NCBI GenBank assembly: GCA_015069495.1
Contig: SVIN01000006.1
Location: 10,847 to 74,846, forward strand
DNA: 64,000 bases
Direction of reading: 5' to 3'
Source of the DNA: Clostridiales bacterium
GTDB taxonomy: Bacteria > Bacillota > Clostridia > Christensenellales > Borkfalkiaceae
The position numbers were made by a program, and so were the translations under genes. The notes below the pieces were generated by a model. The model made no database searches, had not been told where the DNA came from, and saw nothing but the letters and a program-made list of their open reading frames with translations. Shown piece by piece: positions 4,245-20,470 of the stretch. The number at the start of each line of letters is the position of its first letter. Positions within the stretch are counted from its first letter, which is position 1.

Positions 4245-4249
4245 ACAAT

Positions 4250-4424
4250 GGCTCTGTCACATCACTTGGTTGATTTTTGACGGTAAAATACTGTGAAATT
4301 CTGCGTGTTTTTTTCGGTTGCAGACCGCTGTGGGTATGCTCCCTCACAAAACACTTGTCGTTCTTGTATTTTTCTCGTCAATCGCTAAAAAAAGCTAAAA
4401 TAAACCATTCTCTGTGACATAGCC
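4250..4424 (+). repeat. MITE-like element, copy 1 (full length)
   Basis: Begins GGCTCTGTCACATCACTTGGTTGATTTTTGACGG and ends ...CGTCAATCGC...AAACCATTCTCTGTGACATAGCC, giving imperfect terminal inverted repeats. Homologous to 16024-16197 and 20224-20335. Confidence 0.8.
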
Positions 4425-4427
4425 AAA

Positions 4428-4718
4428 TCAATTCTTCTTTAAATAATTATCTAAAATATTTTGGATAAATTCATCCGCGATTCCCGAGGTGGGGGATTGC
4501 GGATTTTCTTTTTCATTTTTGGGTTTTTCTTCCGTGTCGCAATCCGTTTTCTTGGTTTGTTGAAAGGTGTTAAAGGTTTGCGTAAAGGTGGATAAATCCT
4601 TTAAAAAGCTGAGCATCTGTTCGGAATTTTTTAATTTCGCCATCAACGGCCGAACGCTTTCCGAAAAATCGGGGTTTTGTGAAAGATAATATAACAGTAC
4701 CAATATCAAAATTTCCAT
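4428..4718 (-). CDS. hypothetical small protein with a hydrophobic N-terminus
   Basis: ORF begins MEILILVLLYYLSQNPDF.... I recognise no family. The start was chosen at the internal Met. Confidence 0.4.
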   Translation of the reverse strand: MEILILVLLYYLSQNPDFSESVRPLMAKLKNSEQMLSFLKDLSTFTQTFNTFQQTKKTDCDTEEKPKNEKENPQSPTSGIADEFIQNILDNYLKKN

Positions 4719-4791
4719 GTTACAGTATATGCACTGTGTCGAAAAGTTGATGATGAGAATAGTATGTAGTATCAATTTTTCGGAGGTGGAT

Positions 4792-5061
4792 ATGAAGAGT
4801 TTTAAGGACTACGCGCCAAATGAAACGCCAGTGCAAACGGCAAGCGCGGAGGAGTTAACGCGGAAAATTATTTCACAATATAATGGAAAAAGTAACGCGG
4901 ATATGTTGAAAAATATTTTATCGGAAGCGGAAAAAAGTAAACGCGCGGGCACGCTTTCCAATGAGGAAATCGAGGTGTTTTACCAAAGCTTTGCTCCCAT
5001 GCTGGACAGTTCGCAAAGAAAACGCCTGCGCGCAGTTGTGGATAAATTGAAAGAAATTTGA
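4792..5061 (+). CDS. hypothetical 89-aa protein
   Basis: GGAGG SD 5 nt upstream of ATG 4792. Divergent from the 4428-4718 ORF. No family recognised. Confidence 0.45.
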   Translation: MKSFKDYAPNETPVQTASAEELTRKIISQYNGKSNADMLKNILSEAEKSKRAGTLSNEEIEVFYQSFAPMLDSSQRKRLRAVVDKLKEI

Positions 5062-5063
5062 TT

Positions 5064-6188
5064 TTACATAGCGGATAACGCGTTTAATAGGATATCAATT
5101 TCTTGGCGTGTATTATCGTGTGAAAGGGAAACGCGCACCAAACCGCCGTCTTGCGTGCCTAAGGCTTCATGTATCAAGGGCGCGCAATGCAACCCGCCCC
5201 GCGTAGCGATTGCGTATTCTTCCGACAGCCGTTCCGCAATGGTTTCCGAGGGAAAAATTCGATGTGCAAACGCTGTAATTCCACAAGGATTGGGTGCGGA
5301 ATACAGCGTGTATTGCGGTAATTTTTGCAATCCCTTGACAAGATATTCGCTTAAAACGAGGATTTTACTTGTGATTTCTTTTTGGTGTAAAGTAAGGTGG
5401 CGCGCGCCCTCTAACAGAGAAAGGACTGCGGGGAAGTTGAGTGTCCCCGCTTCCAATGCATCGGGATAGAAATCGGGCATTTCCAAGGAAATACTCATCG
5501 ACCCCGTACCGCCGAATAAAAGGGGGACGGGGTTGACTCTTTCAGAAAAAAGCAACGCGCCGCTGCCTTGTATGCCCAGCATGCCTTTATGCCCTGCAAT
5601 CGTCAGTAAATCGATACCTGCCCCCTGCATTTTGATATCAAAGTGTCCCGCGCCTTGCGCTCCGTCGCACAAAAGCAGGACGTGATCGGGTAGAATTTTT
5701 CGCACTGCTTTGACATCGGGCGCATAGCCCGTGACGTTGGAAGCGGCGGTTACGGCAACCAATCGTGTGTTGGGACGAAGCAGGGCACGGATATCTTCCG
5801 CGTGCAGATACGCGCCCGCTTTCTCACCGCGCAAAGGGCAGATATCATATTCAATGGTTCCTGCTTGCCGTAAGTATTCCAAGGGGCGCAAGACGGAGTT
5901 ATGTTCCATGCAAGTGGCAATGACGTGGTCGCCTTTTTTCAATACGCCCAGCAATGCAACGTTTAAGGCTTCCGTACAGTTTTTGGTGAAAATAACGCGG
6001 TCGAATCCATACCCGTCGAACAGTGCGTTTAAGGTGTAACGGCAATTTTGTATCTGCTTGGCGCAAGCCAGCGACAGTTTGTGACCGCTTCTGCCAGGGT
6101 TGGCGCAAACCTTGATGGAGGAAGCAACGGCGGTCAGGACGGTATCGGGTTTTCTGCCGCCCGTGGCGGCGTTGTCAAAATATATCAT
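5064..6188 (-). CDS. class V aminotransferase / cysteine desulfurase family protein
   Basis: MIYFDNAATG N-terminus, GHK PLP-lysine context (AGHKGMLG) and a GGLHCAP active-site Cys loop. Confidence 0.85.
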   Translation of the reverse strand: MIYFDNAATGGRKPDTVLTAVASSIKVCANPGRSGHKLSLACAKQIQNCRYTLNALFDGYGFDRVIFTKNCTEALNVALLGVLKKGDHVIATCMEHNSVLRPLEYLRQAGTIEYDICPLRGEKAGAYLHAEDIRALLRPNTRLVAVTAASNVTGYAPDVKAVRKILPDHVLLLCDGAQGAGHFDIKMQGAGIDLLTIAGHKGMLGIQGSGALLFSERVNPVPLLFGGTGSMSISLEMPDFYPDALEAGTLNFPAVLSLLEGARHLTLHQKEITSKILVLSEYLVKGLQKLPQYTLYSAPNPCGITAFAHRIFPSETIAERLSEEYAIATRGGLHCAPLIHEALGTQDGGLVRVSLSHDNTRQEIDILLNALSAM

Positions 6189-6240
6189 ATACGAACCTCG
6201 GTTGGAGAAAAATTCATACAATATATTATTCCCCAAAGGA

Positions 6241-6259
6241 GGCGGGTATGACATGACAA
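6241..6259 (+). repeat. degenerate dispersed motif copy (desulfurase|DUF3343 junction)
   Basis: GGCGGGTATGACATGACAA. Its second ATG is the DUF3343 start. Confidence 0.35.
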
Positions 6260-6519
6260 TATTGGCGGTTTTTCGTTCGCGGGCGCACAGCTTGGATTAT
6301 GCAGAACGGTTACAATCCTACGGAGTATCGGCACAGACCGTTCCCACCCCGAAAGAGGCGCGGATCGGTTGCGGATTATGTGTAAAGTTTGACGAGCGTT
6401 CGTTTATACGCGCGCAAGCAATTTTACGGACGGGGCGGTATGCTTCGTTTAAGGGTTTTTATAAAATGGATTTTATCGGTGGTAAATTGTCCCTGACGCC
6501 GTATGGCGGAAAGGTTTAA
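6253..6519 (+). CDS. DUF3343-like small protein (putative S/Se carrier-like)
   Basis: 88 aa, MTILAVFRSRAHSLDYAERLQSYGV...CGLCV pattern. AAGGAGG upstream. Divergent from the desulfurase. Confidence 0.6.
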   Translation: MTILAVFRSRAHSLDYAERLQSYGVSAQTVPTPKEARIGCGLCVKFDERSFIRAQAILRTGRYASFKGFYKMDFIGGKLSLTPYGGKV

Positions 6520-6524
6520 AACGC

Positions 6525-6553
6525 TTGCATTCTATGCGCAGATGTGCTATAAT
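6525..6553 (+). promoter_or_regulatory. sigma-70-type promoter of nth with extended -10; probably gives a leaderless mRNA
   Basis: TTGCAT (6525-6530), 17-nt spacer, TGcTATAAT (6545-6553). ATG of nth at 6560 with no SD in between. Confidence 0.6.
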
Positions 6554-6559
6554 GCAAGT

Positions 6560-7186
6560 ATGAAAAAAGCGGAAAAACAAGCGGCTTTGTCCGAACTTGC
6601 AACTTTATACCCAGACGCGAAACCTGCGTTGAATTTTACGACCCCGTACGAGTTGTTTGTGGCGGTGGTTTTGTCTGCGCAATGCACGGACGCGCGGGTG
6701 AATATTGTAACGGCAAAATTATTTGAAAAATATTCCACCCCCCAAGCGATGGTGACTTTATCGCAAAAGGAACTGGAAAAATATATTTTCTCTTGCGGAT
6801 TTTACCGCATGAAGGCGGAACATATTCTGTCCGCTTCACAAGATATCTTGGATAAATTTAACGGTGAAGTGCCTGGTACGGTGGAAGAACTGATGACCCT
6901 TGCAGGTGTTGGAAAGAAGACGGCAAACGTTGTGTATGCAGTGGCGTTTGGCGGGGATGCGATTGCGGTGGATACTCACGTCTTCCGCGTGAGCAACCGT
7001 TTGGGACTTGCCAAAGGCAAAACGCCAAGCGAGGTGGAGGAAGGTTTGTACAAGGTCGTGCCGAAAACGGATTGGTCTAAGGCGCACCATTGGTTGATTT
7101 ATCATGGTCGGCAGGTCTGCCATTCGCAAAAACCTGCGTGTGAAACTTGCACTTTATCACATTTGTGTGATTATGCGAAAAAATAA
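6560..7186 (+). CDS. nth: endonuclease III
   Basis: HhH-GPD pattern (LMTLAGVGKKTANVV) and C-terminal 4Fe-4S cluster CHSQKPACETCTLSHLC. Confidence 0.92.
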   Translation: MKKAEKQAALSELATLYPDAKPALNFTTPYELFVAVVLSAQCTDARVNIVTAKLFEKYSTPQAMVTLSQKELEKYIFSCGFYRMKAEHILSASQDILDKFNGEVPGTVEELMTLAGVGKKTANVVYAVAFGGDAIAVDTHVFRVSNRLGLAKGKTPSEVEEGLYKVVPKTDWSKAHHWLIYHGRQVCHSQKPACETCTLSHLCDYAKK

Positions 7187-7196
7187 GGTATACAAT

Positions 7197-7237
7197 CTCC
7201 CGCGTTTCCCATACTGTGGAAAACGGGAGGTTTTTTA
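7197..7237 (+). terminator. rho-independent terminator after nth
   Basis: CTCCCGCGTTTCC / GGAAAACGGGAG stem followed by GTTTTTTATT. Confidence 0.8.
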
Positions 7238-7239
7238 TT

Positions 7240-7482
7240 GTGGAACATTGTGAACAGGAATGTTTGACCGCGCTTGCGGATTGGGAAGATATTTTGGAGA
7301 AAAAGGCAAAAATTTATTCACGGCTATTGACGGATCCCGCCCTTGCAAAGATGATGGAAGATTGCAGTTTTCGTCATGAAAAACGCAAGGAGAAATTATT
7401 AGGTTTGGTGTGCGGTAAAACGGTAAAAAAGAAAAATGGGCAGGGCATGTCTGCGTTGAATGAGGGGGAAGGTGCGCAATGA
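7240..7482 (+). CDS. hypothetical small protein, translationally coupled to the next gene
   Basis: The ORF-track start (7216) lies inside the nth terminator. GTG 7240 follows GGGAGG. Its end overlaps the next start through ATGA. Confidence 0.4.
   Translation: MEHCEQECLTALADWEDILEKKAKIYSRLLTDPALAKMMEDCSFRHEKRKEKLLGLVCGKTVKKKNGQGMSALNEGEGAQ
7443..7460 (+). repeat. dispersed motif copy (end of the hypothetical ORF, before the CotF-like gene)
   Basis: GGGCATGTCTGCGTTGAA. Confidence 0.55.
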
Positions 7483-7685
7483 GGTTGGAGAAACGAGAAA
7501 TTACCTTAAACGAAAAGGATAGTTTAAAGGATTTGCTTTTACTGGAAAAAGCGTTGCTTGGTCAGTATACGGACGCGTTGACGCGGGTGACAAGGAAAGA
7601 ACTCCGCGAACGAATTTTAGAACTTGTAAAAGAAACGTCGGGAGAAATTTTTTGGATGAAAGATTTACTGGATAAAGAAAGTTAA
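7479..7685 (+). CDS. Coat F (CotF)-like domain protein
   Basis: LNEKDSLKDLLLLEKALLGQYTDALTRVT...LRE resembles the Coat F domain pattern (recognised from memory). Confidence 0.5.
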   Translation: MRLEKREITLNEKDSLKDLLLLEKALLGQYTDALTRVTRKELRERILELVKETSGEIFWMKDLLDKES

Positions 7686-7694
7686 AAAAGGGTA

Positions 7695-7723
7695 TTGACA
7701 AAGCCTGTCGAATATTGTATACT
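7695..7723 (+). promoter_or_regulatory. sigma-70-type promoter of mscL
   Basis: TTGACA (7695-7700), 17-nt spacer, TATACT (7718-7723). Confidence 0.6.
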
Positions 7724-7765
7724 ATTGTCAAAATAACGCGGGCAACCGCGGAAAGGGGTTTGACA

Positions 7766-8407
7766 ATGGAAAAGAAGATTGGCAAAGTTAAGAAGTTTTT
7801 TGGCGAATTTAAGACGTTTATCACCCGCGGAAACGTGCTGGATATGGCTGTCGGTGTTATCGTCGGCGGTGCGTTTACGGGGATTGTGAACGGGTTGAGT
7901 AATTTTATTTTGAAACCCGTCATCAACTGGTTGTTGGCGATGGCTTTGGGCGGCGGCGCGTTGGAAAAAGCGGTGACTATTTTGGGCGAACCCGCTTACT
8001 TGGAAGACGGTGTGACGATTGACCTTGCAAGCTCGATTTATATTGATTGGGGCTCGTTTATCAGCGCGATTATCAACTTCCTCATTGTGGCATTCGTATT
8101 GTTTTTGGTGGTTCGTACCATGAACAACCTTGCCAAAGCGCACGAACGTATGTTGGAAGGGTTGGATTTTGATGAAAAGAAAGAAATTTACCGTATCTGC
8201 AGAGAACAGAGAGTATCGAAGAAAGAAGCGGTAGCAATCTATGAAAACAATGTAAAAGCCATCAAGGAAGCAAAGGCAGCGGCTGAAGCTGAGGCGGCTG
8301 CAAAGGCGGCGGAAGAAGCGGCGATTGCAGCGGCAAAAGAAGAGGAAAAAGCGATGGCAAATACCCGTCTTTTGGAAGAAATCCGTGACTTGCTTAAAAA
8401 TAAATAA
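7766..8407 (+). CDS. mscL: large-conductance mechanosensitive channel with a long Ala/Glu/Lys-rich C-terminal extension
   Basis: FKTFITRGNVLDMAVGVIVGGAFTGIV is the MscL TM1 signature. 213 aa. Confidence 0.88.
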   Translation: MEKKIGKVKKFFGEFKTFITRGNVLDMAVGVIVGGAFTGIVNGLSNFILKPVINWLLAMALGGGALEKAVTILGEPAYLEDGVTIDLASSIYIDWGSFISAIINFLIVAFVLFLVVRTMNNLAKAHERMLEGLDFDEKKEIYRICREQRVSKKEAVAIYENNVKAIKEAKAAAEAEAAAKAAEEAAIAAAKEEEKAMANTRLLEEIRDLLKNK

Positions 8408-8441
8408 ATCTTGACATTTACGCTTCGCGGCGGAAAAACGT

Positions 8442-8470
8442 TTGACTTTTTCCCGCGGAGCGTATATAAT
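8442..8470 (+). promoter_or_regulatory. promoter of the pheS T-box leader
   Basis: TTGACT (8442-8447), 17-nt spacer, TATAAT (8465-8470). Confidence 0.6.
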
Positions 8471-8477
8471 ATAGTAG

Positions 8478-8742
8478 TAAATTGCATACAGGCGATGAAA
8501 AAGCAGGTGCGTTTGAGGTTCCTTTGACAGAGATTTTACCCATAGGCTGAAAGGTAGAAAAAGGATAAAACGTTGCCATTTCACTTTGGAGCCGTCCTTT
8601 TGAGACTTATATAAGAGGTAGGAAGGACCGTATACCGCGGCGTAACGGCGGGAATAAGGCGTAAGAAATGCTTACGCGAATGCAGGTGGTACAGCGGAAA
8701 TTTCGCCCTGCGTGTCCTTTTGACACGCAGGGCGTTCTTGTT
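8478..8742 (+). promoter_or_regulatory. T-box leader (tRNA-Phe responsive), including its terminator
   Basis: T-box core AGGTGGTACAGCGG at 8684-8697. Terminator stem CCCTGCGTGTC/GACACGCAGGG at 8706-8732 followed by a T-rich tail. AGAGA and GAAAGG stem I elements. Candidate specifier UUC followed by A at 8580-8583. Located directly upstream of pheS. Confidence 0.85.
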
Positions 8743-8825
8743 ATAAAGAAATCATGCAATTGTTGATGGATAATTATGACAATGAATCTGGTAACATTTA
8801 ACGAAACTATTTTCGGAGGAAAGAT

Positions 8826-9839
8826 ATGAAAGAAAAAATCGAAAGCTTGCGCGCGGACATTACCGCGGCGATTGGGCAGACGGAAACGGGCAGAGCACTT
8901 TACGAAGTAAAGGTAAAGTTCCAAACCGAGCTGAAAGGGATTATGAGCGGCATGAAAGATTTGCCTAAGGAAGAACGTCCCACGTTCGGTAAAGTGGTCA
9001 ACGAATTTAAACAATCGATGGAAACGTTGTTTGACGAACGCGCTGTCGTTGTGCGTAAAATGGAATTGGAAGCGCAGTACGCCAAGGAACGTATCGACAT
9101 TACGATGCCTGGGAAAACCTACAAGGCGGGTGCATTACATCCTATTACTCTTGTAAAAAATGAGCTGATTGATATTTTCGCAGGTATGGGTTTTAAGGTG
9201 TTTGAAGGTCCTGAAATCGAAACCGATTACTACAACTTCACCGCCCTCAATACCCCCAAGGATCATCCCGCGCGCGATATGCAGGATACTTTCTATCTTG
9301 CGGAAAATTTACTCCTTCGTACGCAAACTTCGGCAGGCCAAATCCGCGTTATGGAAAAGAATGCGCCCCCGATTAAAATCCTTTCCCCCGGCCGAGTTTT
9401 CCGTTCGGACGATGACGCGACCCATTCGCCCATGTTCCACCAGATGGAAGGGCTTGTCGTAGACAAGGGGATTACTCTTTGTGATTTGCAGGGTATGCTT
9501 GGTGAATTTGCGCGTAAAATGTTCACCGATTCTACCAAAGTACGCTTGCGTCCTTCCTATTTCCCGTTCACCGAACCCAGTGTAGAGGTTGACCTCAGCT
9601 GTTCAGAATGCGGTGGGAAAGGTTGCCGTTTGTGTAAGGGTACGGGCTGGATTGAAGTGCTCGGCGCGGGCATGGTCAACCGTCACGTATTGGAAAATTG
9701 TAACGTAGACCCCGATGAATATACGGGTTTTGCATTCGGTATGGGTGTTGAACGTATTGCTATGTTGAAATACGGCATTAACAACATCAAAACGCTGTTC
9801 GAAAACGATACCAGATTTTTGGAACAGTTCGAGGATTAA
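8826..9839 (+). CDS. pheS: phenylalanine--tRNA ligase alpha subunit
   Basis: 337 aa with class II motifs ([43 protein letters not shown]). Confidence 0.96.
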
Positions 9840-9853
9840 GGGAGGGAACGGAT

Positions 9854-12286
9854 ATGAAAGCACCTTTAAGTTGGTTGAAAGATTACGTAGATATTGATAT
9901 TTCCGCGCAGGAATTGGCAGACAAACTCTTTTCCTGCGGTTTTGAGGTCGAAGAACTCATTTACCTTGGTGAGAAAATCAGCCGTGTCGTGGTTGGTGAA
10001 ATCAAGGCGTTGACTCCTCACCCCGACAGCGACCACATGCAAATCTGCGTCGTGGATTGCGGTGAAGAATACGGCAGAGAATTACAAATCGTAACGGGCG
10101 CGTCCAATGTATACGTTGGCATGAAAACGCCTTGCGCGTTGGATGGTTCGACGGTGGTGGAAAGCAATCCCGCCATGTTGGAAAAGAACCCCGACGGTAT
10201 CAAGAAAATTAAGAAAGGCAAGCTTCGCGGTGTAGAATCCTTCGGTATGCTTTGTTCGGGTGAAGAACTCGGTATCAACGATGATTTCTACCCTGGGGCA
10301 GAATTTGACGGCTTGTTGGATTTGGCAAAGGATGCGCCTGTGGGCGAAGATATCAAGAAAATCGTTGGTTTGGACGATTGGATTTTTGATATTTCCGTTA
10401 CTGCAAATCGTCCCGATTGTCAATGCATTTTGGGTATCGCGCGTGAAGTGGCGGCGGTTATGAATAAGCCTTTCAAGGCACCCGACTTTACCTATACGGC
10501 AAAAAAGACGTCGGCATCTCCCATCTCGGTAGAAGTGCTTGCGCCCGACCTTTGCCCCCGCTACGTGGGACATTACGTGGAAAATGTCACGGAAACGGTT
10601 TCGCCTGCTTGGCTGAGAAAACGTTTGGCGATTTCGGGGATTCGTTCTCTTTCGCCCATCGTTGATATCACCAACTTTGTCTTGTTGGAAATGGGACAGC
10701 CCATGCACGCGTTTGACGCAGACGATATCGCGGATAGAAAAATCATCGTTCGACGTGCGGAAAAGGGTGAAAAAATTGTTACTTTGGACGAAAAGGAATT
10801 TACTTTGAACCCCGAAAATCTTGTGATTTGCGATGGTAATAAACCCGTTGCGTTGGCAGGGATTATGGGTGGTTTAAACAGTGAAATCAAATCCTCGACC
10901 AAAAACGTTTACTTCGAATCGGCAAAGTTTGCGCGTGACAACGTAAGAAAAACTTCGCGTGCGCTTGGTCAGTCTTCCGACTCGTCTTCTCGATTTGAAA
11001 AGGGTGTGGATGCATACACCAACGGCTTGGGCATGGCGAGAGCGTTGCACTTAATAGAAGAACTTGCTTGCGGTACAGTCACCGAACTTTGCACAGACGT
11101 TTGCGCGGTGGATTTGGCCCCTCGTACAATGACGGCAAGTATTGCGAAAATCAATGCATTGCTCGGTATCACAGTGCCTAACGAGGAAATCTTGTCCATT
11201 TTGACCCGTTTGAATTTCCAACCCGCGATTGAGGGTGATGCTTTGACGGTGGTAATCCCTGGCTATCGCGATGACGTGGACGGATATCCCGATTTGGCAG
11301 AAGAAATCATCCGTATGTACGGTTATGACCATATCATCCCCACCTTCTTACAAGCGGCGCAAGTAACGGGCGGCGGCTTGACGGATGAACAGAAGAAGGA
11401 ATTACACCTTAAAAACTTGTTGTGTGTGCAAGGTTTCTCGGAAGCGTATAACTATTCGTTCTACTCCCCGAAGGATTTTGACCTCATGAAATTGCCCGAA
11501 GATGCAGAGGAAAGAAATGCCGTACGTATTTTGAACCCCATCAGCGAAGAATTGTCCGTGATGCGTACTTTCCTTGCGCCTTCCATGTTAATGAACGCGG
11601 TGCGTAATATTCGCCGTGGCAACGATGAAGGTAGACAATTTGAAATCGCAAGCACTTACACCCCTCGCAACACAGCGGCGAGCGAACAGCCCGACGAAAG
11701 AAAACACGTAGTGCTTGGCGTTTGGGGCGGTAAAAATGATTTCTTCGATATGAAAGGCGGGGTGGAACGCATCGCCGAAGTCTTCCATTTGAATTTTACC
11801 TATGAAAGAGCTTCGAAGTCCTACTTGCACCCTGGTGTTTCCGCGAACGTGATTTTGAATGGTAAGACGGTGGGTTACATTGGTGAGTTGGACCCTGCGA
11901 TTTCCGCATCCCTTGGTTTGGATAAGAAAGTATATTTGGGTGAATTGGATTTGGGTGCGTTGGATTTGGATGACGGCGTGCGTTATAAAAACTTGCCGAA
12001 ATTCCCTGCGGTGAAACGCGACCTTGCGTTGATTGCGGATGAAAAACTCACCTGCGCGGAAATCGAAGACGTACTGATGCATTCTTGCAAGTACGTGACG
12101 GAAGTAAAACTTTTCGACGTATATCGCGGCGGTCAAGTGCCTGAAGGCAAAAAGAGTATGGCGTTCACTTTGACCTTTACGCCTGATGCAAACGTGGAAA
12201 AGGCGTTTACTCCTGAAACTTTGGACGGATACGTGAAGAAGATTTTGAGCAACCTTAAATTTAAACTCGGTATTGAACTTAGATAA
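9854..12286 (+). CDS. pheT: phenylalanine--tRNA ligase beta subunit
   Basis: 810 aa. N-terminal tRNA-binding OB, B3/4 and B5 regions and a C-terminal FDX-ACB-like tail. Follows pheS. Confidence 0.95.
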   Translation: MKAPLSWLKDYVDIDISAQELADKLFSCGFEVEELIYLGEKISRVVVGEIKALTPHPDSDHMQICVVDCGEEYGRELQIVTGASNVYVGMKTPCALDGSTVVESNPAMLEKNPDGIKKIKKGKLRGVESFGMLCSGEELGINDDFYPGAEFDGLLDLAKDAPVGEDIKKIVGLDDWIFDISVTANRPDCQCILGIAREVAAVMNKPFKAPDFTYTAKKTSASPISVEVLAPDLCPRYVGHYVENVTETVSPAWLRKRLAISGIRSLSPIVDITNFVLLEMGQPMHAFDADDIADRKIIVRRAEKGEKIVTLDEKEFTLNPENLVICDGNKPVALAGIMGGLNSEIKSSTKNVYFESAKFARDNVRKTSRALGQSSDSSSRFEKGVDAYTNGLGMARALHLIEELACGTVTELCTDVCAVDLAPRTMTASIAKINALLGITVPNEEILSILTRLNFQPAIEGDALTVVIPGYRDDVDGYPDLAEEIIRMYGYDHIIPTFLQAAQVTGGGLTDEQKKELHLKNLLCVQGFSEAYNYSFYSPKDFDLMKLPEDAEERNAVRILNPISEELSVMRTFLAPSMLMNAVRNIRRGNDEGRQFEIASTYTPRNTAASEQPDERKHVVLGVWGGKNDFFDMKGGVERIAEVFHLNFTYERASKSYLHPGVSANVILNGKTVGYIGELDPAISASLGLDKKVYLGELDLGALDLDDGVRYKNLPKFPAVKRDLALIADEKLTCAEIEDVLMHSCKYVTEVKLFDVYRGGQVPEGKKSMAFTLTFTPDANVEKAFTPETLDGYVKKILSNLKFKLGIELR

Positions 12287-13170
12287 TGAAAAGAGAACAA
12301 AAAATTTCACAATTTGGATTTTTTAACGTAGACAAACCGTCGGGGATTGTTTCCTCGACGGTTGTCAACAAGATAAAATGGCTGTCGGGCGCACATTGCG
12401 GACACATGGGGACGCTTGACCCTTTGGCAAGCGGTGTTTTACCCGTAGGGGTTGGCAATGCCGCGCGCCTTTTCGATTACTTCTTGGAAAAGGAAAAAGA
12501 GTATATTGCCGAGTTTACTTTTGGGGTGGATTCGGATACGCTTGATTCGACGGGAAATCTCGTACAAGGGGGGCATGTACCCGATGAAACGGAAATTTCG
12601 GACGTATTGCCCACTTTTTTCGGGGATATTATGCAGGTTCCGCCTAAGTACAGCGCAAAGAACATCAACGGCCGCAGAGGGTATGATTTGGCGCGCGCAG
12701 GGATTGAATTTGAACTCGCGCCGAAAAAAGTGCATATCTATGGTATGGAACTTCTTGGTAAAAAAGAGGACAGTGCGGATACCTTCTTGGTGAAAATCCG
12801 TTGCGGCGGCGGTACGTATATTCGTTCGTTGGGGCGGGATATCGCGGCGGCATTGGGGACGAAAGCGGTGATGAGTGCGCTTCGCCGTACTCAAAGCGGT
12901 GTTTTTACCTTGCAAAAAGCGGTACCGTTTGACTTTTTCATGCACGACCCCGCAATCGAGGATATGGAAAAATACCTCATCCCGACCGACAGTGTATTGC
13001 CCTTTGAACGGTTAAACTTGACGGAAAAGGGTACAATGCGGATTTTACAAGGCAATTTTGTATCCGTGGACGTAGCGGATGGGTTGTATAAAATTTACGA
13101 CGGTGAGTCGTTTTACGGCTTGGCGGAAGTAACGGAAGGAAAGGCGAAAGCAAAGACAAAATTATGTTAA
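12286..13170 (+). CDS. truB: tRNA pseudouridine(55) synthase
   Basis: GHMGTLDPLASGVLPV catalytic Asp motif. Start overlaps the pheT stop (TAATGA). Confidence 0.93.
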   Translation: MKREQKISQFGFFNVDKPSGIVSSTVVNKIKWLSGAHCGHMGTLDPLASGVLPVGVGNAARLFDYFLEKEKEYIAEFTFGVDSDTLDSTGNLVQGGHVPDETEISDVLPTFFGDIMQVPPKYSAKNINGRRGYDLARAGIEFELAPKKVHIYGMELLGKKEDSADTFLVKIRCGGGTYIRSLGRDIAAALGTKAVMSALRRTQSGVFTLQKAVPFDFFMHDPAIEDMEKYLIPTDSVLPFERLNLTEKGTMRILQGNFVSVDVADGLYKIYDGESFYGLAEVTEGKAKAKTKLC

Positions 13171-14030
13171 AAACGGTATGGCTGACGGAACAACCGAATA
13201 CGGAAAAGGGCGTTGCGATGTTATTGGGCGGCTTTGACGGCTTGCACGCGGGGCATCGTAAGCTTTTATCGCGCGCAAAAAACAGCGGATGTTCGGTGGG
13301 GATTATGACCATTGTCGGCGGAAAGGAAAAGGGCTTGTTTACCTTTGCGGAGCGCGAGGAAATTTTTAAGACTGCTGGCGTGGATTTTGTTTTTGAGTTG
13401 CCGTTTGAGGAAATCAAGGACTTGTCACCGCGTGCGTTTTTACAGGTATTGGAAACGCAATTTACCCCTAAGTTGTTCGTTTGCGGGACGGATTTTCGTT
13501 TTGGCGCAAAAGCGGCGGGAACGGCGGAAATGTTAAAACAAAGCACCCAGGTATGCGTTGAAGTATTGCCGCTTGTGGAAATGAGCGGTGAAAAAGTTAG
13601 TTCGTCCTATATCAAAACGTTGTTGCAAAACGGAAAAGTGGAGCAAGCGCAGGAATTGTTGACCCATGCGTTTTTTTTGGTTGGAGAAGTATATGCTGAT
13701 CGAAAAATTGGTCGGACAATCGGGTTTCCGACGGCAAATATTTCTTACCCCATAGGTAAATATCCCTTAAAAATTGGGGTTTACGAAACGCGGGTTTGTG
13801 TGGATGGTAAAACGTATAAAGGAATTACCAATTACGGCGCGCGCCCGACTTTTGCGGATGAAACGGTGGTGACGGAAACCTATTTGGACGGCTTTGACGG
13901 GGATTTGTACGGTAAGACGTTAAAGGTGGAATTTATCCGCTATCTTCGCGACGTGCGGAAATTCGACAGTATAGACGGCTTAAAAAAACAATTGGAAGAA
14001 GATTTGAGGAGAGTAAGAACAAATGATTAA
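13164..14030 (+). CDS. ribF: bifunctional riboflavin kinase / FMN adenylyltransferase
   Basis: GGFDGLHAGH, SSSYIKTLL and GFPTANI motifs. Confidence 0.93.
   Translation: MLKTVWLTEQPNTEKGVAMLLGGFDGLHAGHRKLLSRAKNSGCSVGIMTIVGGKEKGLFTFAEREEIFKTAGVDFVFELPFEEIKDLSPRAFLQVLETQFTPKLFVCGTDFRFGAKAAGTAEMLKQSTQVCVEVLPLVEMSGEKVSSSYIKTLLQNGKVEQAQELLTHAFFLVGEVYADRKIGRTIGFPTANISYPIGKYPLKIGVYETRVCVDGKTYKGITNYGARPTFADETVVTETYLDGFDGDLYGKTLKVEFIRYLRDVRKFDSIDGLKKQLEEDLRRVRTND
13546..13562 (+). repeat. dispersed motif copy inside ribF
   Basis: CCCAGGTATGCGTTGAA, read as TQVCVE. Confidence 0.6.
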
Positions 14031-14868
14031 ATTTGGACCGAGCGGGAATTGTGAAAGTTTCTACGCGGAAGGATATTCCCACACGGAAGAATCGGCAGCG
14101 TTTGTAAAAAAACGCGGGTTGGATTGTTTTGAATATTCCTTCGGACGCGGTGTACGCATGTCTGAGGATAAGGCGATCTCTATTGGTGAAGCTTTTACCA
14201 AAGAGGATGTGGAAATTTCCGCGCACGCGCCCTATTTTATCAACTTTGCAAACCCCGACGATGAAATGGCGGCAAAATCCTACGGCTACGTATTGGACAG
14301 CGCAAAGATGCTGAAACTGATGGGCGGAAAGCGAGTGGTCTTTCACCCCGCGGCGCAGGGCAAAGCAAAGCGTGAAGAGGCGGTGGCTTTGACGGAAGAC
14401 CGCTTGAAAATTTTACGTGATTATATCTATCTCAATAATATGCAGGATATGATGTTCTGCCCTGAAACGATGGGTAAAATTGCCCAAATCGGCACCGTGG
14501 AAGAGGTGACCCGTTTCTGTAAAGTCGACCCCATATACACGCCTTGCGTAGATTTTGGACATATCAACGCGCGTGAGCAGGGTTCGCTTGTGACGGTGGA
14601 AGATTACAAGAGCCGTTTGGAATATATGATTGCGGAACTTGGGTTTGAACGCATGAAACATTTCCACGTACATTTCTCCAAAATTATGTACTCGGCAAAA
14701 GGGGAAATCAAGCACTTGACCTTTGCAGATGAAGTGTATGGACCGAACTTTGAACCTTTGGCGGTGGCTTTGAAAGAATTGGGGTTAGAACCTTACTTGG
14801 TCAGCGAATCAGCGGGCATGCAGGCGGAAGAAGCCGAAATTATGAAAAAAATCTACCAATCTTTGTAA
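14023..14868 (+). CDS. xylose-isomerase-like TIM-barrel protein (AP endonuclease family 2-like)
   Basis: 281 aa. HAPYFINFANPD and VVFHP patterns resemble the Nfo/TIM-barrel family. Exact function not determinable. Confidence 0.55.
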   Translation: MIKFGPSGNCESFYAEGYSHTEESAAFVKKRGLDCFEYSFGRGVRMSEDKAISIGEAFTKEDVEISAHAPYFINFANPDDEMAAKSYGYVLDSAKMLKLMGGKRVVFHPAAQGKAKREEAVALTEDRLKILRDYIYLNNMQDMMFCPETMGKIAQIGTVEEVTRFCKVDPIYTPCVDFGHINAREQGSLVTVEDYKSRLEYMIAELGFERMKHFHVHFSKIMYSAKGEIKHLTFADEVYGPNFEPLAVALKELGLEPYLVSESAGMQAEEAEIMKKIYQSL

Positions 14869-14871
14869 AAA

Positions 14872-14896
14872 CTCGCCCTTTAGGGCGGTTTTTTTA
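14872..14896 (+). terminator. rho-independent terminator
   Basis: CGCCC-TTTA-GGGCG hairpin followed by a T run. Confidence 0.75.
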
Positions 14897-14916
14897 TGGA
14901 AAATATCGTTGTATAC

Positions 14917-14945
14917 TTGACGAAAAGATTTTTTTTTGTTAAAAT
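14917..14945 (+). promoter_or_regulatory. sigma-70-type promoter of the M24 peptidase gene
   Basis: TTGACG (14917-14922), 17-nt spacer, TAAAAT (14940-14945). Confidence 0.5.
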
Positions 14946-14963
14946 AGTGATAAGAGGTAGTCT

Positions 14964-16019
14964 ATGGTGTACTCAAACGGCAAAAAGATATTGCAGCTTT
15001 CGGGTTGTGAAGCGGTGTATACGTCCTGCGCATTTCAAATGACTTATATCACGGGGATGGGACCTGAAAACGGTTGCGTCATTGTGGATAAGGACGGAGT
15101 AACGCTTTACACGGATATGCGTTATATGGAAGCGACGGAAAAACTGTTCGCGGGCACGGATATCAAACCTGCAATGGTGAATAAAACGGAAATTATGAAC
15201 CGCCTTGCAGGGTATAACAGTGTGGGTATTTCCTTTGACCAAACGACGTATACCGAATATCTTGCCTTGGAAAAGGCGGGGGTGCAGATGCAAAACGTCG
15301 ACGAGGCGTATACGCAGGCGATGATTACCAAAAACGATTGGGAACTTGACAATATCGCAAAAGCTTGTGAAATTGCCGAGGACGCGTTTAATGAGCTTCT
15401 CCCCGAAATTCGTGAAGGTATGACGGAAACGGAAGTTGCGGCTTTGCTTGAATATAAAATGCGTAAGTTGGGCGCGCAGGGTTTGTCCTTTGACACGATT
15501 GTGGCGTTTGGCGCGCATGCGGCGGTTCCTCACCACGAAACAGGTTTGACCAAGCTTTCGTTTGGTGACCCGATTTTGATTGACTTTGGCTGTAAAGTCA
15601 ACGGCTACTGTTCGGATATCACCCGCACCTTCTTGTTTGGCGATGATGGAAAGCATGAAGAGTTTAAAAAAGCGTATGCTTCGGTTTTGAAAGCGCACAA
15701 CCTTGTCAAGGAAAAAGTCACGGCGGGTATGACGGGTAAAGAAGCGGACGCGATTGCGCGTGATTCACTGAAAGCGGACGGATACGGCAATCTGTTTACC
15801 CATTCGTTGGGACATGGCATTGGCTTAAACGTGCATGAAAAACCCTCGGTTAGCCCGAAAGGGGAACAGGTTTTGGAAAACGGTATGGTTTTCTCGGATG
15901 AACCGGGTGTGTACGCGGCGGGCGAATACGGTATCCGCATTGAAGATACGGTTACCTTGAAAAACGGTAAAGTGGTAAGCTTTATGTCGAAAACCGACAG
16001 AAATCTTATTATATTATAA
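14964..16019 (+). CDS. pepP: M24-family Xaa-Pro aminopeptidase
   Basis: DFGCKVNGYCSDITRT, HSLGHGIGLNVHE and EPGVY...GIRIED metal-ligand motifs. Confidence 0.88.
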   Translation: MVYSNGKKILQLSGCEAVYTSCAFQMTYITGMGPENGCVIVDKDGVTLYTDMRYMEATEKLFAGTDIKPAMVNKTEIMNRLAGYNSVGISFDQTTYTEYLALEKAGVQMQNVDEAYTQAMITKNDWELDNIAKACEIAEDAFNELLPEIREGMTETEVAALLEYKMRKLGAQGLSFDTIVAFGAHAAVPHHETGLTKLSFGDPILIDFGCKVNGYCSDITRTFLFGDDGKHEEFKKAYASVLKAHNLVKEKVTAGMTGKEADAIARDSLKADGYGNLFTHSLGHGIGLNVHEKPSVSPKGEQVLENGMVFSDEPGVYAAGEYGIRIEDTVTLKNGKVVSFMSKTDRNLIIL

Positions 16020-16023
16020 ACAA

Positions 16024-16197
16024 GGTTTTGTCTCATCACTCGGCTGATTTTTGACGGCAAAACACGGCGAAATTCTATGCTTTACGCTCGGTTACAGACC
16101 GCTGAGGGTATGCGCCCTTGCGCAAAGCTTGTCTTTCTTGTGTTTTCCTCGTCAAAATGTGAAAAATCACTTATCAACCGCTTGCTGTGACACAACC
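16024..16197 (+). repeat. MITE-like element, copy 2 (full length, diverged)
   Basis: GGTTTTGTCTCATCACTCGGCTGATTTTTGACGG...CTTGCTGTGACACAACC. Collinear with copy 1 over its whole length. Confidence 0.75.
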
Positions 16198-16240
16198 TAA
16201 AAATAGAAAAAATTTATATAGCATATAAAGGAGAAAAATT

Positions 16241-16804
16241 ATGGCACAGATTTTGGCAGGCGATATTCGTAAGGGCGTAACTTTCGAGTACAAGAGCGGT
16301 GTTTACACCGTAACAGATTTCCAACACGTAAAACCCGGTAAGGGCGCGGCGTTTGTAAGAACGACGTTGAAGAACGTTGTTACGGGTCAAGTTTTGTCCA
16401 ACGAAACTTTCAACCCCACCACCAAGCTTGAAACCGCACAGGTAGAAACGAAGAAAATGACCTATTCCTACTTCGATGGCGAATTCTACGTATTCGTAGA
16501 CGAAGAATGGAACCAAGAAAACCTTACGTTCGACCAAGTGGAAGACGCGCTTAAATATATCAAGGAAAACGATACCGTTACCGTGAAATTCCTTTACGGC
16601 AAGGCATTCTCCGTTGAACCTGAAAACTTTGTTGAACTTAAGGTTATCGAAGCAGAACCCGGTGTTAAGGGCAACACTGCTACCAACGTTATGAAGAACG
16701 CTAAGGTAGAAACGGGCGCAACCATTCAGGTTCCTATGTTCGTAGAAGAAGGCGAAACGATCCGTATCGATACCAGAACGGGCGAATACATGAGCCGCGT
16801 TTAA
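16241..16804 (+). CDS. efp: elongation factor P
   Basis: 187 aa. [17 protein letters not shown] motif with the modified Lys loop. Confidence 0.96.
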
Positions 16805-16828
16805 TCTACGTATACAAACGACAAATGG

Positions 16829-16856
16829 CAGCAGGACGCAACGTCCTGCTGTTTGC
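16829..16856 (+). terminator. hairpin after efp (weak T tail)
   Basis: CAGCAGGACG-CAA-CGTCCTGCTG followed by TTTGCG. Confidence 0.5.
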
Positions 16857-16873
16857 GTATAGCGAGGTAAAAT

Positions 16874-17311
16874 ATGAAAGCAGTTGTACAACGCGTGAAA
16901 AAAACAACCTTATCCGTGGATGGGGAATTGATTTCGGAAATTCCTTTTGGGCTGACGGTATTTTTAGGGGTGAAAGTTGGCGATACTGAAAAGGAAGCGG
17001 CATACCTTGCAAAAAAAATTGCAGGGTTACGTATCTTTGAAGATGAAAACGGTAAAATGAATTTGTCTGTAAAAGACGTCGGCGGTGAAGTTTTGCTTGT
17101 GTCGCAGTTCACTTTATACGGTGACGCATCCCATGGCAACCGTCCCAGCTTTACCCTTGCTGAACGCCCCGAGCGCGCTGAGCCTTTGTACGAGTACGCA
17201 GTAAAGGAAGTATCTTCCTACGGTATTACGGTCAAAAAAGGCGTATTTGGCGCGGATATGAAAATTGAGCAGTTGAATGATGGTCCCGTGACCATCTTGT
17301 TAGAGATTTAA
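16874..17311 (+). CDS. dtd: D-aminoacyl-tRNA deacylase
   Basis: MKAVVQRV N-terminus, SQFTLYGD and GPVTILLE motifs. Confidence 0.94.
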   Translation: MKAVVQRVKKTTLSVDGELISEIPFGLTVFLGVKVGDTEKEAAYLAKKIAGLRIFEDENGKMNLSVKDVGGEVLLVSQFTLYGDASHGNRPSFTLAERPERAEPLYEYAVKEVSSYGITVKKGVFGADMKIEQLNDGPVTILLEI

Positions 17312-17623
17312 CAAAAATAACCCCGCAATTTCTTTAAAATAAAGGACTCTACTGTGCGTAGAGTTGTGATTCTACTGTGGATAGAGCGGTTTGTCTCTTT
17401 CGGTAGAATGGCAAAGAGGAGGGGTAGAGAGGAAAAGCGGGTAAAACGGTTGTCTTTTTTTGGTAAATTGGGTAGGATAATAATACCCCTTGTGCATGAG
17501 GGGTAGCTGAAACAATTTTTTGAAATAATGGATAAGCCTTGACAAGAATGAATGCCTTACAGTGCATGGCATGGATTGTGTAGGGTGAAGTTTGTGAAAA
17601 CGACTGAAAAGGAGAAAACCAAA

Positions 17624-18688
17624 ATGACAATTGTAAATGAAATTTCGCGTCCGAAAAGAAGAGGTTGGAACGAAGCAGACCACCTCATTGATACGCCCTT
17701 GAAAGATGAGCGTGGCGCGTCTGTGAAGGGGCGTAATAAAACGGGGGAAAATAAAGGGGTAATTCCGTTGTTCTTTGCAACAGACGACAATTATCTGCCC
17801 TTTCTTTCCGTGACGTTGCAATCCCTTTTGGAAAATTCTTCGCATGATTATGATTATCGCGTGTACGTATTGCATTCGGGGGTACGTGCAGATTTTGAAG
17901 AGAAGATTTTGCGCTTTTCCAAACCAGGTTTTACGGTGGAATTTGTAGACGTAACCCAGCCGTTGAAGGAAATTTCCGAACATTTACACATGCGCGATTA
18001 TTATACTTGTACCACTTATTTCCGTGTGTTCATTGCACAGATGTTTCCGCAGTACGATAAGGCATTGTACTTGGATTGCGACACCGTGGTTTTGGGAGAT
18101 ATCAGCGCGTTGTATGATTATGATTTGGGTGATCATCTCATTGCGGGTGCGCCTTGCGAGGGTGTGAACAGTTTTGAAGTTTACCGTGATTACGTGCGTA
18201 TCGTAGATGGGTTAAATCCCGATTATTTCTTTAACGCGGGCGTAATTTTGATGAATTTGAAAGCATTCCGTAAGGAAAATTTCTACGAGCAATTTGCCGA
18301 CTTGTTGCAAAAGTATAAATTCACCTTAATCCAAGACGAGGATTATCTCAACGTGCTTTGTCAAGACCGCGTATTGCGTTTGCCCCGCGCTTGGAATAAA
18401 TCCCCCGTCGGCAAGGATATTTTGCCCCGCGAGGACTTGCGCATTGTGCATTATTTGATGTCGTGGAAGCCTTGGCGTTACGATGACGTGCCTTACGGTG
18501 AATATTTTTGGGAATATGCAAAACAGACGGATTTTTACGATTATCTGAAAGAAATTTTTGATAAATCCGTAAAGGGCTTGGAGGAACAAGACAAACGCCA
18601 GGAAGCCAATTTGCAGGCAATGGCACGCAGTGAAATCGAGCGTGAAGATGGGTATTTCAAACGCTACGGAAAAGTGTACGGAAATTAA
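17624..18688 (+). CDS. family 8 glycosyltransferase
   Basis: DDNY, YLDCDTVVLGDI (DxD) and NAGVILMNL motifs. AAAGGAG SD before ATG 17624. Confidence 0.8.
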   Translation: MTIVNEISRPKRRGWNEADHLIDTPLKDERGASVKGRNKTGENKGVIPLFFATDDNYLPFLSVTLQSLLENSSHDYDYRVYVLHSGVRADFEEKILRFSKPGFTVEFVDVTQPLKEISEHLHMRDYYTCTTYFRVFIAQMFPQYDKALYLDCDTVVLGDISALYDYDLGDHLIAGAPCEGVNSFEVYRDYVRIVDGLNPDYFFNAGVILMNLKAFRKENFYEQFADLLQKYKFTLIQDEDYLNVLCQDRVLRLPRAWNKSPVGKDILPREDLRIVHYLMSWKPWRYDDVPYGEYFWEYAKQTDFYDYLKEIFDKSVKGLEEQDKRQEANLQAMARSEIEREDGYFKRYGKVYGN

Positions 18689-18701
18689 AAAGGAGCATAC
18701 C

Positions 18702-19553
18702 ATGGATGAGATGAAGCTGTCTCCCGATCGGGTAGAGGTGTTGAAAAAGATTGCATTGTACGAGCGCGAGGGGCGCTTTGACGAGGATGTGGAAAACGAT
18801 CCTGAAGCCCCTGAACTCTTACCTGATAAGGTGGATTATCTTTGTGAAAAATTCTCCAGCAAAGTTTCGCGCCGTGTTGCCAATTTCGTCGCGGACCATT
18901 ACTTTTTAAATTTAATAAAAAAGGACAAGTTGGTGATTGATAAGGTGTATGGGGAAGAACATTTGCACGCTTTAAAAAACGGTGCGATTGTGACCTGCAA
19001 CCATTTCCACCCTTATGACAATTACGCAGTGTTTCATTGCATCCGTAAGGCTTTACCGCACAAGTATCTTTACAAGATAATCCGCGAGGGGAATTACACC
19101 AATTTCCCTGGTTTGTATGGTTTTTTCTTTCGGCATTGCAACACGTTGCCTTTATCAAGCAACCGCCGTACGATGATAAATTTCATGTCCGCGGTCAATA
19201 CCTTGTTGAAACGCGGGGAAACGATTTTGATTTATCCCGAGCAGGGGATGTGGTGGAATTACAAAAAACCTCGCCCTTTCAAGCTTGGCGGGTTCAAAAT
19301 GGCATACAAAGCGGGCGTACCCGTGTTGCCTACCTTTATCACTATGACGGATGATACGCGGTTGGATGAAAGCGGATATCCGATACAGAGGTACACTTAC
19401 CACATTATGCCTCCGATTTATCCCGATATGGCGTTGGGTGAAAAGGCGGGCGCGCAGAAAATGTGCGACGAAGCGTACGCGCTTTGCAAAGCAAAATATG
19501 AAGAAGTTTACGGCGTGCCGTTGATGTACGGAACGCAAGAGGATGAAAAATGA
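18702..19553 (+). CDS. PlsC-type (lysophospholipid) acyltransferase
   Basis: TCNHFHPYD (HX4D), IYPEQG and a PVLP block. Confidence 0.75.
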   Translation: MDEMKLSPDRVEVLKKIALYEREGRFDEDVENDPEAPELLPDKVDYLCEKFSSKVSRRVANFVADHYFLNLIKKDKLVIDKVYGEEHLHALKNGAIVTCNHFHPYDNYAVFHCIRKALPHKYLYKIIREGNYTNFPGLYGFFFRHCNTLPLSSNRRTMINFMSAVNTLLKRGETILIYPEQGMWWNYKKPRPFKLGGFKMAYKAGVPVLPTFITMTDDTRLDESGYPIQRYTYHIMPPIYPDMALGEKAGAQKMCDEAYALCKAKYEEVYGVPLMYGTQEDEK

Positions 19554-20173
19554 TATTGTATTTGTTGATAATTTTTGTATGCTCGCTAGGACTCTCTGGT
19601 GCGGTGGCAATTTGGTCAGGTGAAAATTTTTTCCTGCTGTTTGGATTGGTCGCTCTCGGTGTAGTTTTTGAAATTGCAGTGGACGGCTTGACCGCAACGA
19701 TTGCGCGGTTGTTGCCCGCGAAATGTGCCGACCACACGAAAAAAATATTTGTGGTTTCCGCGAAAGAAAAGAAGTTCTACGAAAAATTAAAAATCCGTTT
19801 ATGGAAAGACAAAATCCCCGAAATCGGGCATTTTACAGGTTTCCGTAAAAATAAATTGGCGGACCCGCAAAGTGTTGAATACGTTGACCGCTTTTTATTG
19901 GAGAGCTGTTACGGTGAAATCGGGCATTTCTTCAGTTTGTTTACAGGGTTTACCCTTTTGTTTCTTTACCCCTTATCGGATATTTGGTTTGTGTTGGCGA
20001 TTCCCGTGGCTATCATCAATTTATTCCTCAATTTACCCTCACTGTTGGTTTTGAGATATAACTCGTACAAGTTAGAGGTATTAAGAAAGAGTCTTTTAAA
20101 AAAACAACAACGCAAAGCTGTACAGGCGCAGGCGGTTGAAATCGCACCTGCAACCGCGGAAAAAACAGAATAA
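19550..20173 (+). CDS. polytopic membrane protein, CrtO-like (glycosyl-4,4'-diaponeurosporenoate acyltransferase family-like)
   Basis: WKDKIPE...F.K..L......Y...F..E.CYGEIGH pattern recalled for that family. ATGA overlap with the upstream gene. Confidence 0.45.
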   Translation: MILYLLIIFVCSLGLSGAVAIWSGENFFLLFGLVALGVVFEIAVDGLTATIARLLPAKCADHTKKIFVVSAKEKKFYEKLKIRLWKDKIPEIGHFTGFRKNKLADPQSVEYVDRFLLESCYGEIGHFFSLFTGFTLLFLYPLSDIWFVLAIPVAIINLFLNLPSLLVLRYNSYKLEVLRKSLLKKQQRKAVQAQAVEIAPATAEKTE

Positions 20174-20182
20174 ATCTTGTCT

Positions 20183-20216
20183 AAGTCCTCCCTTTTTCAA
20201 GCGGAGGGCTTATTTG
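20183..20216 (+). terminator. hairpin terminator after the membrane acyltransferase-like gene
   Basis: AAGTCCTCC / GGAGGGCTT stem (one G-U pair) followed by ATTTGAT. Confidence 0.5.
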
Positions 20217-20223
20217 ATGTGAC

Positions 20224-20335
20224 GGCTCTGTCACATCGCTTGGTTGATTTTTAACGGAAAAATACTGTGAAATACGGCGTATTTTTCTCGTCAATCGCTA
20301 AAAAACTAAAATCAACCATTCTCTGGTGCATAGCC
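20224..20335 (+). repeat. MITE-like element, copy 3 (internally deleted)
   Basis: GGCTCTGTCACATCGCTTGGTTGATTTTTAACGG...CTCGTCAATCGCTAAAAAACTAAAATCAACCATTCTCTGGTGCATAGCC. Lacks about 60 bp of the central region present in copies 1 and 2. Confidence 0.8.
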
Positions 20336-20470
20336 TATGTGAATTTGGGAAAAATTATAAAAATATTCAAAAATTATTACAAAAAAAGAGGAAATACAAA
20401 AGATATGTCGAATACATAAGTGTAGGGGAAAAATGCATACTTGCTTTTATAAAGCAAAGGAGGGGAAAAG

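Follow-up and report, generated by a model that had tools for sequence, protein, structure and literature searches.

What are the three similar stretches of non-coding DNA that each follow a plus-strand gene in this contig, and how did they come to lie there? The window, meaning the whole stretch of 64,000 nucleotides analysed here, corresponds to C41:10847-74846 of a Clostridiales assembly (G000; 1.74 Mb, 50 contigs, 45% G+C). A sequence-only reading of the window had interpreted the three stretches as copies of an old family of miniature inverted-repeat transposable elements (MITEs) that might double as terminators. We find approximately 40 loci of this repeat on 24 contigs of the assembly, using blastn and an nhmmer profile, and the three repeats are a real family, far beyond chance. 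The copies are very probably a non-autonomous transposable element descended from an insertion sequence (IS) of the ISSag10/MTnSag1 clade, which belongs to the IS1595 family. By sequence comparison, this parent clade can now be identified; the MITE family itself appears to be new, and its kind ordinary.

Copies in the window and in the assembly

Alignment showed that the three copies in the window are collinear, as had been claimed. Copy 1 (4250-4424, + strand) is a full short form of 175 bp. Copy 2 (16024-16197, + strand, 174 bp) is also a full short form and represents a divergent subfamily; its nearest relatives are C11:32749 (83%) and C34:13986 (82%). The identity of copies 1 and 2 is 78.7% over 127 bp, in line with the earlier estimate that they differ at about a quarter of positions. 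Copy 3 (20224-20335, + strand, 112 bp) is an internal-deletion form that retains both arms. It is missing 63 central bases, close to the figure of 60 given before, and its deletion junction is the same as that of C40:71782 and C40:80417. The copies start 5 nt after the stop codon of an SDR gene, 4 nt after that of the M24 peptidase gene pepP and 50 nt after that of a CrtO-like gene, which agrees with the range of 4-50 nt originally described. They are indeed non-coding, with no open reading frame (ORF) conserved between forms or species. The imperfect terminal inverted repeats of approximately 45 bp were recovered as well: GGCTCTGTCACA...TGGTTGATTTT pairs with AAAATCAACCA...TGTGACATAGCC, and the arms contain one conserved 5x5 mismatch block.

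Elsewhere in the assembly the family is heterogeneous in length. There are 15 full short copies (167-183 bp), three intact long copies (443-453 bp), five long copies cut by contig ends, one copy of 224 bp, seven deletion forms consisting of the arms only (77-112 bp) and about nine fragments. This mixture fits the description of an old family with decay and deletion derivatives; the overall range is 77-453 bp, i.e. less than about 500 bp. The intact long forms (C28:1915-2366, C32:18440-18882 and C43:25305-25757) have a palindromic insert of ~280 bp in the centre, which was not found outside the MITE anywhere in this genome. Long forms also occur in two other species (L018:860-1318 and L091:2093-2547), with inserts that differ from those of this genome and slightly shifted central positions. 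Five contig ends of the assembly lie inside the long form, which illustrates how MITEs break short-read assemblies. Among the matches listed, the MITE itself occurs only in Ca. Scatosoma species and in Clostridia/Clostridiales metagenome-assembled genomes (MAGs) from human, ruminant and other guts, and a MITE-specific pattern scan of metagenomes returned just six short contigs.

Evidence of transposition

Apart from its copy number, three lines of evidence support the MITE interpretation: 8-bp target duplications, an empty site, and a transposase-bearing element with similar ends. The 8-mers flanking the 31 complete copies match at a mean of 5.06 of 8 positions, compared with a mean of 3.19 and a maximum of 4.26 for left and right flanks paired at random (2000 permutations). 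Four duplications are perfect (TACTGAAA, TTTTTTAA, TTTTGTAA and TTTATTTT), and 86% of the duplicated bases are A or T. In the window, the flank 8-mer comparison pairs TAAACAAT (4242-4249, + strand), which includes the SDR stop codon, with AAATCAAT (4425-4432, + strand) on either side of copy 1, and GATGTGAC (20216-20223, + strand) with TATGTGAA (20336-20343, + strand) on either side of copy 3; both pairs match at six of eight positions. The target duplication of copy 2 is degenerate. Its left flank, ATAAACAA (16016-16023, + strand), contains the pepP stop codon, and its right flank, TAAAAATA (16198-16205, + strand), was examined by 8-mer and empty-site comparison.

The copy 2 site, between pepP and efp, is empty in ten related contigs. 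All ten encode an EF-P identical to that of the window and have a pepP-efp spacer of 38-48 bp without the element, reading ...TATAAAAAGAAAAATTT... at the empty site. The corresponding spacer in the window is 221 bp long, which is the element plus about nine extra bases. The copy 1 site is filled identically in two metagenome contigs (L115 and L116), and in a third (L117) a decayed right-end remnant alone remains; the copy 3 site is also filled in L139. Sites filled in relatives (L091 and L113) look empty in this genome, as judged by flank spacing.

The copies at C40:71782 and C40:80417, which are 8.6 kb apart, have in common not only their deletion junction, but also further derived bases found in these two copies only, so a deleted form has spread to a second locus. 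The shared junction alone was rejected as proof of mobility, because there is GT/TTT microhomology at this point and the deletion could have recurred. One of the two copies (C40:71782-71891) occupies a T-run site upstream of a gene, and the same site is occupied in another species (L100:3854-3986), where the duplication, TTTTTTTA, is perfect. The two occupants are differently deleted; their arms are ~90% alike, and no alignment is possible for the adjoining spacer. Either the insertion is an old common one that has since been remodelled, or a hot spot was hit twice.

The probable parent element

The sequence-only reading had reported no transposase in the window. A tblastn search of the whole assembly for a tISSag10-type transposase gave nothing below E = 2, and a search of the six-frame translation with a profile of 90 homologues, filters switched off, reached no E better than 0.31, so that no transposase of this clade was found and the copies are non-autonomous. 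Since MAGs often lose multi-copy IS, this absence holds for the assembly only and is not proof.

A transposase gene between the same terminal inverted repeats, which the sequence-only reading had suggested looking for, does exist elsewhere in an element with near-identical ends; there is none in this genome. The element was found by scanning one genome per species with the end pattern GGCTNTGTCACNNNNNNTGGTTGATTTT. The scan yielded at least 114 loci, which among the matches listed (here and below) belong to Firmicutes, Actinobacteria, Fusobacteria, Lentisphaerae, Cloacimonadota, Bacteroidales, Desulfovibrionaceae, Gastranaerophilales and others; many of the matches sit at contig ends. The element in question (L076:3851-5575) is 1,725 bp long and flanked by the 8-bp duplication AATTGTTA. 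It encodes a transposase of 347 aa belonging to the IS1595 family (PF12762, PF12760; NF033547, 196 bits) and, as a passenger, Lnu(C) (NF000141, 380 bits; cut-off 300), and is the published MTnSag1, also called tISSag10. MTnSag1 is described as a 1.7 kb element with lnu(C), an IS1595 DDE transposase, 25-bp inverted repeats and 8-bp direct repeats (PMC5704250); its targets are preferentially AT-rich, and it passes through a circular intermediate (Achard & Leclercq 2007, as reviewed in PMC5704250).

The left end of the MITE matches the left end of this element at 30 of 34 bases, including 22 of the first 25. At the right end the terminal 12 bases are identical, and 20 of 25 match. Further inside the right arm of the MITE, the sequence (TGGTTGATTTT...TTGACGAGAAAAATAC) is similar to the left end of the IS. 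The 8-bp duplications and the AT-rich targets of the MITE also agree with those published for MTnSag1. An origin from ISL3, our first guess from the GGCTCT start, was dropped after the end-pattern scan had yielded the IS1595 element. The ends of the ISSag10 clade start with GGCnnTG...; those of the MITE were set directly against the ends of L076, L131 and L132.

The tISSag10 transposase is ~99-100% identical in more than 20 of the at least 114 loci. Copies of tISSag10/MTnSag1 carrying lnu(C) are present, for example, at loci L003, L014, L022, L030, L036, L040, L078, L104-L106 and L112; the hosts include Veillonella, Fusobacterium, Streptococcus suis, Collinsella, Lentisphaeria, Cloacimonadota, Bacteroidales and Gastranaerophilales. 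A sister element (L131:1120-2983 and L132:1120-2983) encodes a transposase that is 77% identical and a hexapeptide-repeat acetyltransferase as the passenger. It is flanked by the 8-bp duplications TAAAAGAA and ATTCTTTT, and its right end, GCTAAAAATCAGTCAT..GTGACAGAGCC, resembles that of the MITE. We considered this sister as a nearer autonomous relative and rejected it, as it is no closer to the MITE than tISSag10. Two further loci with homologues of 65-68% identity (L128 and L130) were rejected because their ends differ (they are of the GGGTTGACAAAT type).

From these comparisons, a plausible course of events can be outlined. An IS1595-type DDE transposase, supplied in trans, would recognise the terminal inverted repeats (GGCTCTGTCACA...TGGTTGATTTTTGACG), and the element would be inserted into AT-rich 8-bp targets, which become duplicated. 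Targets of this kind are most frequent in short spacers and directly behind stop codons, and this explains why the copies lie just after a gene. By analogy with the published behaviour of MTnSag1, the element may be copied out, form a circular intermediate and be pasted in elsewhere. As to the source of transposase, the copies could be fossils of past bursts, or they may move when a tISSag10-like element visits the cell.

The hairpin

Each copy in the window folds as a long hairpin, as had been predicted, with a z-score of about -5 relative to dinucleotide shuffles (copy 1, -51.2 kcal/mol, z -5.0; copy 2, z -4.9; copy 3, z -5.3). The element is a long imperfect palindrome, whose arms pair along their whole length. 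In a structure alignment of 23 full copies (15 from this genome and eight from other genomes) with a hairpin of 67 pairs, 90.8% of cells are paired, compared with 40-46% when the partners are slid. Pairs that change on both sides number 20, compared with 12.5 +/- 1.9 in shuffles (none of 500 reached 20), and double-change cells number 68, compared with 20.6. Compensatory variants include TGACGG/CGTCA, TTACGG/CGTAA and TAACGG/CGTTA, and in the right arm a small hairpin is preserved in shape although its sequences are unrelated. The 33 bases at the centre (CGGTTACAGACCGCTG.GGGTATGCGCCCT), which form two small hairpins, are nearly invariant across species. It is shown by these data that the hairpin is kept by compensatory changes; what causes the constraint has to be deduced.

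The two strands fold about equally well. G-U pairs outnumber A-C pairs in total (123 vs 34), which is owed to a few fixed columns. When departures are counted as events, the numbers are about equal (approximately 14 G-U and 22 A-C columns), with no skew towards the sense strand. Rfam gave no match at E <= 1 for either the short or the long forms, and the copies contain no consensus promoter or terminator in either orientation. The idea that the element is a terminator is therefore without support: none of the three copies in the window has a GC-rich stem followed by a T-run, either inside or at its end. Separate terminator-like hairpins with a T-run adjoin copy 1 (4473-4504, + strand, downstream of the copy and outside it) and copy 3 (20190-20208, + strand, between the CrtO-like gene and the copy). 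A promoter remnant was also considered and rejected. The left end of the IS has TTGATT-17-TATAAT; in the MITE the -10 sequence has decayed to TGAAAT or CGAAAT, and no promoter-like site was found in a scan.

Orientation relative to replication

We scored the orientation of the copies using our own simple codon-model gene calls and the local GC skew of the contigs. In this genome, 35 of 40 copies are oriented along the leading strand, in agreement with the local GC skew, and three of the five exceptions lie in regions of near-zero skew. Agreement is also complete among the 11 intact or near-intact copies of other genomes with a flank |skew| > 0.05. Of the other loci scored, three have weak skew, with L028 and L072 in agreement and L018 in disagreement; L100 has one copy each way.

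The genome as a whole has an extreme gene-strand bias. Adjacent gene pairs are co-directional in 983 cases and not in 227, and many contigs have 90-100% of their coding bases on one strand, with a GC skew of approximately +/-0.15. As a result of this bias, most copies are also co-oriented with their neighbour genes. Eleven copies in regions of clear skew are able to separate replication from transcription: six have divergent genes on either side, three have convergent ones, and two lie at loci with lagging-strand genes on both sides. All 11 follow replication. The two loci flanked by lagging-strand genes, one between the gene for an 800-aa protein and an mgtE-like gene and the other between a regulator gene and the gene for a 524-aa protein, hold copies that are antisense to both neighbours.

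We favour a replication-linked polarity of insertion, in which the copies would have been inserted, or would have survived, almost only with the left end towards the origin side, i.e. co-oriented with the leading strand. Orientation bias of IS relative to replication is known to be family-specific, to be found above all in Firmicutes, and has been attributed to the mechanism of insertion rather than to selection (Gomez et al. 2014, PMC3971601). The polarity is perhaps allowed by a fixed difference between the two ends of the MITE at positions 13-17. An asymmetric target was rejected as the source of polarity, as the target duplications hold 118 T and 96 A and show no clear polarity. We also rejected a polar oligomer (KOPS- or Chi-like) within the element: no central 8-mer is strongly skewed, and the TTGACG words of one arm are offset by those of the other. 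The octamer GGTATGCG lies in the invariant central loop (e.g. at 4333-4340 of the window). Outside the MITEs it is approximately 3-fold over-represented genome-wide and occurs 101 times on the leading strand and 43 times on the lagging strand; it is the core of a dispersed motif, CAGGTATGCGTTGAA, whose link to the MITE is unproven.

Weighing the explanations

Several observations count against descent from the ISSag10/MTnSag1 clade with replication-linked insertion. The ends of the MITE differ from those of tISSag10 at positions 13-17, so a relative that has not been sampled may be its true partner. Degeneration is seen in many target duplications, several of which match at five or fewer of eight positions. 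Given that no transposase of the clade is present in the assembly, mobilisation in this host is deduced from sequence. As to orientation, IS1595 showed no replication bias in the published survey (Firmicutes P = 0.519, 33 copies; PMC3971601), and the intact tISSag10 copies are divided only 10:5; a replication polarity would thus be without precedent in the family. The polarity is also based on simple gene calls and the GC skew of contigs rather than on a mapped origin.

The main rival to replication-linked insertion is selection on read-through RNA. On this account, copies inside or between co-directional transcription units are read through and survive only in the sense orientation, in which the hairpin RNA is harmless or stabilises the mRNA, and the MITE has been partly domesticated for RNA stability or processing. 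In favour of it, the majority of copies have co-directional genes on both sides, with 2-9 nt separating them from the preceding stop codon and 20-60 nt from the next start, and the strongly stable hairpin, its upkeep by compensatory changes and the near-invariant central loops can be read in the same way. So can the site filled in two species, where the arms are ~90% alike next to a spacer that defies alignment. However, the two strands fold about equally well, with no sense-strand skew in the G-U and A-C events. Rfam has no match, and consensus terminators and promoters are missing in both orientations. Forms without the conserved centre persist, and at least one of them has spread to a second locus. 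The copies between divergent genes or beside lagging-strand genes follow replication and not their neighbours. We consider selection on RNA unlikely. It is also rather doubtful, in our estimation, that the hairpin and its invariant loops are kept because the element works as a folded single strand of DNA on the lagging-strand template, or as RNA, in which case co-orientation with the fork would reflect a strand-specific step of IS1595 transposition or a use by the host, neither of which has been described for this family.

A strong replication-linked orientation combined with a long hairpin conserved in structure is also the hallmark of elements moved as single-stranded DNA by a Y1 enzyme (IS200/IS605 TnpA or RAYT), such as PATEs and REP/BIME, and such a mechanism would produce leading-strand polarity directly. 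Elements moved by Y1 enzymes neither duplicate their target nor carry terminal inverted repeats, whereas significant 8-bp duplications and inverted repeats are present here, and the ends match at 30 of 34 bases those of an IS1595 DDE element that makes the same 8-bp duplication. By these features of the element, no search for a Y1 gene having been made, a Y1 mechanism is highly improbable. The conserved centre and the stable fold could alternatively point to a cis-regulatory leader or trailer, or to a family of small RNA genes, that is not mobile DNA at all. This explanation has next to no plausibility: it is contradicted by the empty site in close relatives and by the target duplications, the approximately 40 copies lie beside unrelated genes, there is no Rfam family, and the deletion forms have lost the centre.

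Relation to known systems

The probable descent from the ISSag10/MTnSag1 clade leaves clear differences between the MITE and MTnSag1/tISSag10 itself. The two are alike in their left ends (30 of 34 bases), the terminal 12 bases of their right ends, their 8-bp duplications and their AT-rich targets. In contrast to the transposon, the MITE is 77-450 bp long and non-coding, has neither transposase nor resistance gene, has arms that pair over their whole length, and differs at end bases 13-17. Its range is limited to Ca. Scatosoma-like Clostridia; tISSag10, by contrast, occurs in many phyla with ~99-100% identity. A MITE derived from an IS of the same family (ISHwa6-related) is known from Haloquadratum walsbyi, where it is 165 bp long and present in seven copies, with inverted repeats of 25 bp and direct repeats of 8 bp (PMC3852290). 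It is similar to the present element in size and in its 8-bp direct repeats, but the host is an archaeon, the sequence is unrelated, and neither an orientation bias nor compensatory hairpin evolution was reported there. With regard to orientation, the replication-biased IS families of Firmicutes (PMC3971601) are similar in having a family-specific orientation with respect to local GC skew; IS1595 is not among them, and MITEs were not analysed in that survey.

Hairpin-forming MITEs are familiar in other bacteria, for example Correia (Neisseria), RUP (S. pneumoniae), bcr1 (B. cereus group) and ERIC. Compared by description only, these are likewise small, intergenic and often co-transcribed, with long predicted RNA hairpins and deletion or insertion variants; they differ in their parent IS families and their duplications (for example, TA for Correia and RUP), and they are not expected to resemble the present family in sequence.

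The present family is a lineage-specific one in poorly known, uncultured gut Clostridia, and it is tied to the ends of a lincosamide-resistance transposon that circulates nearly unchanged across gut phyla. Because of these shared ends, resident MITEs could be stirred whenever the transposon enters the cell. The unusual trait is the replication-polar orientation, in a derivative of IS1595. Together with the maintenance of the hairpin by compensatory changes, it would bear on the coupling between DDE transposition and the replication fork in Firmicutes, as one further data point; the result is otherwise an ordinary one of annotation.

A T-box-like leader in the window

Between copies 1 and 2, positions 8486-8713 (+ strand) match the T-box leader family (RF00230) with 78.4 bits and an E of 7e-16, below the gathering score of 93. 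Immediately downstream of this T-box-like leader are two ORFs, of 337 and 810 aa (8826-12286).

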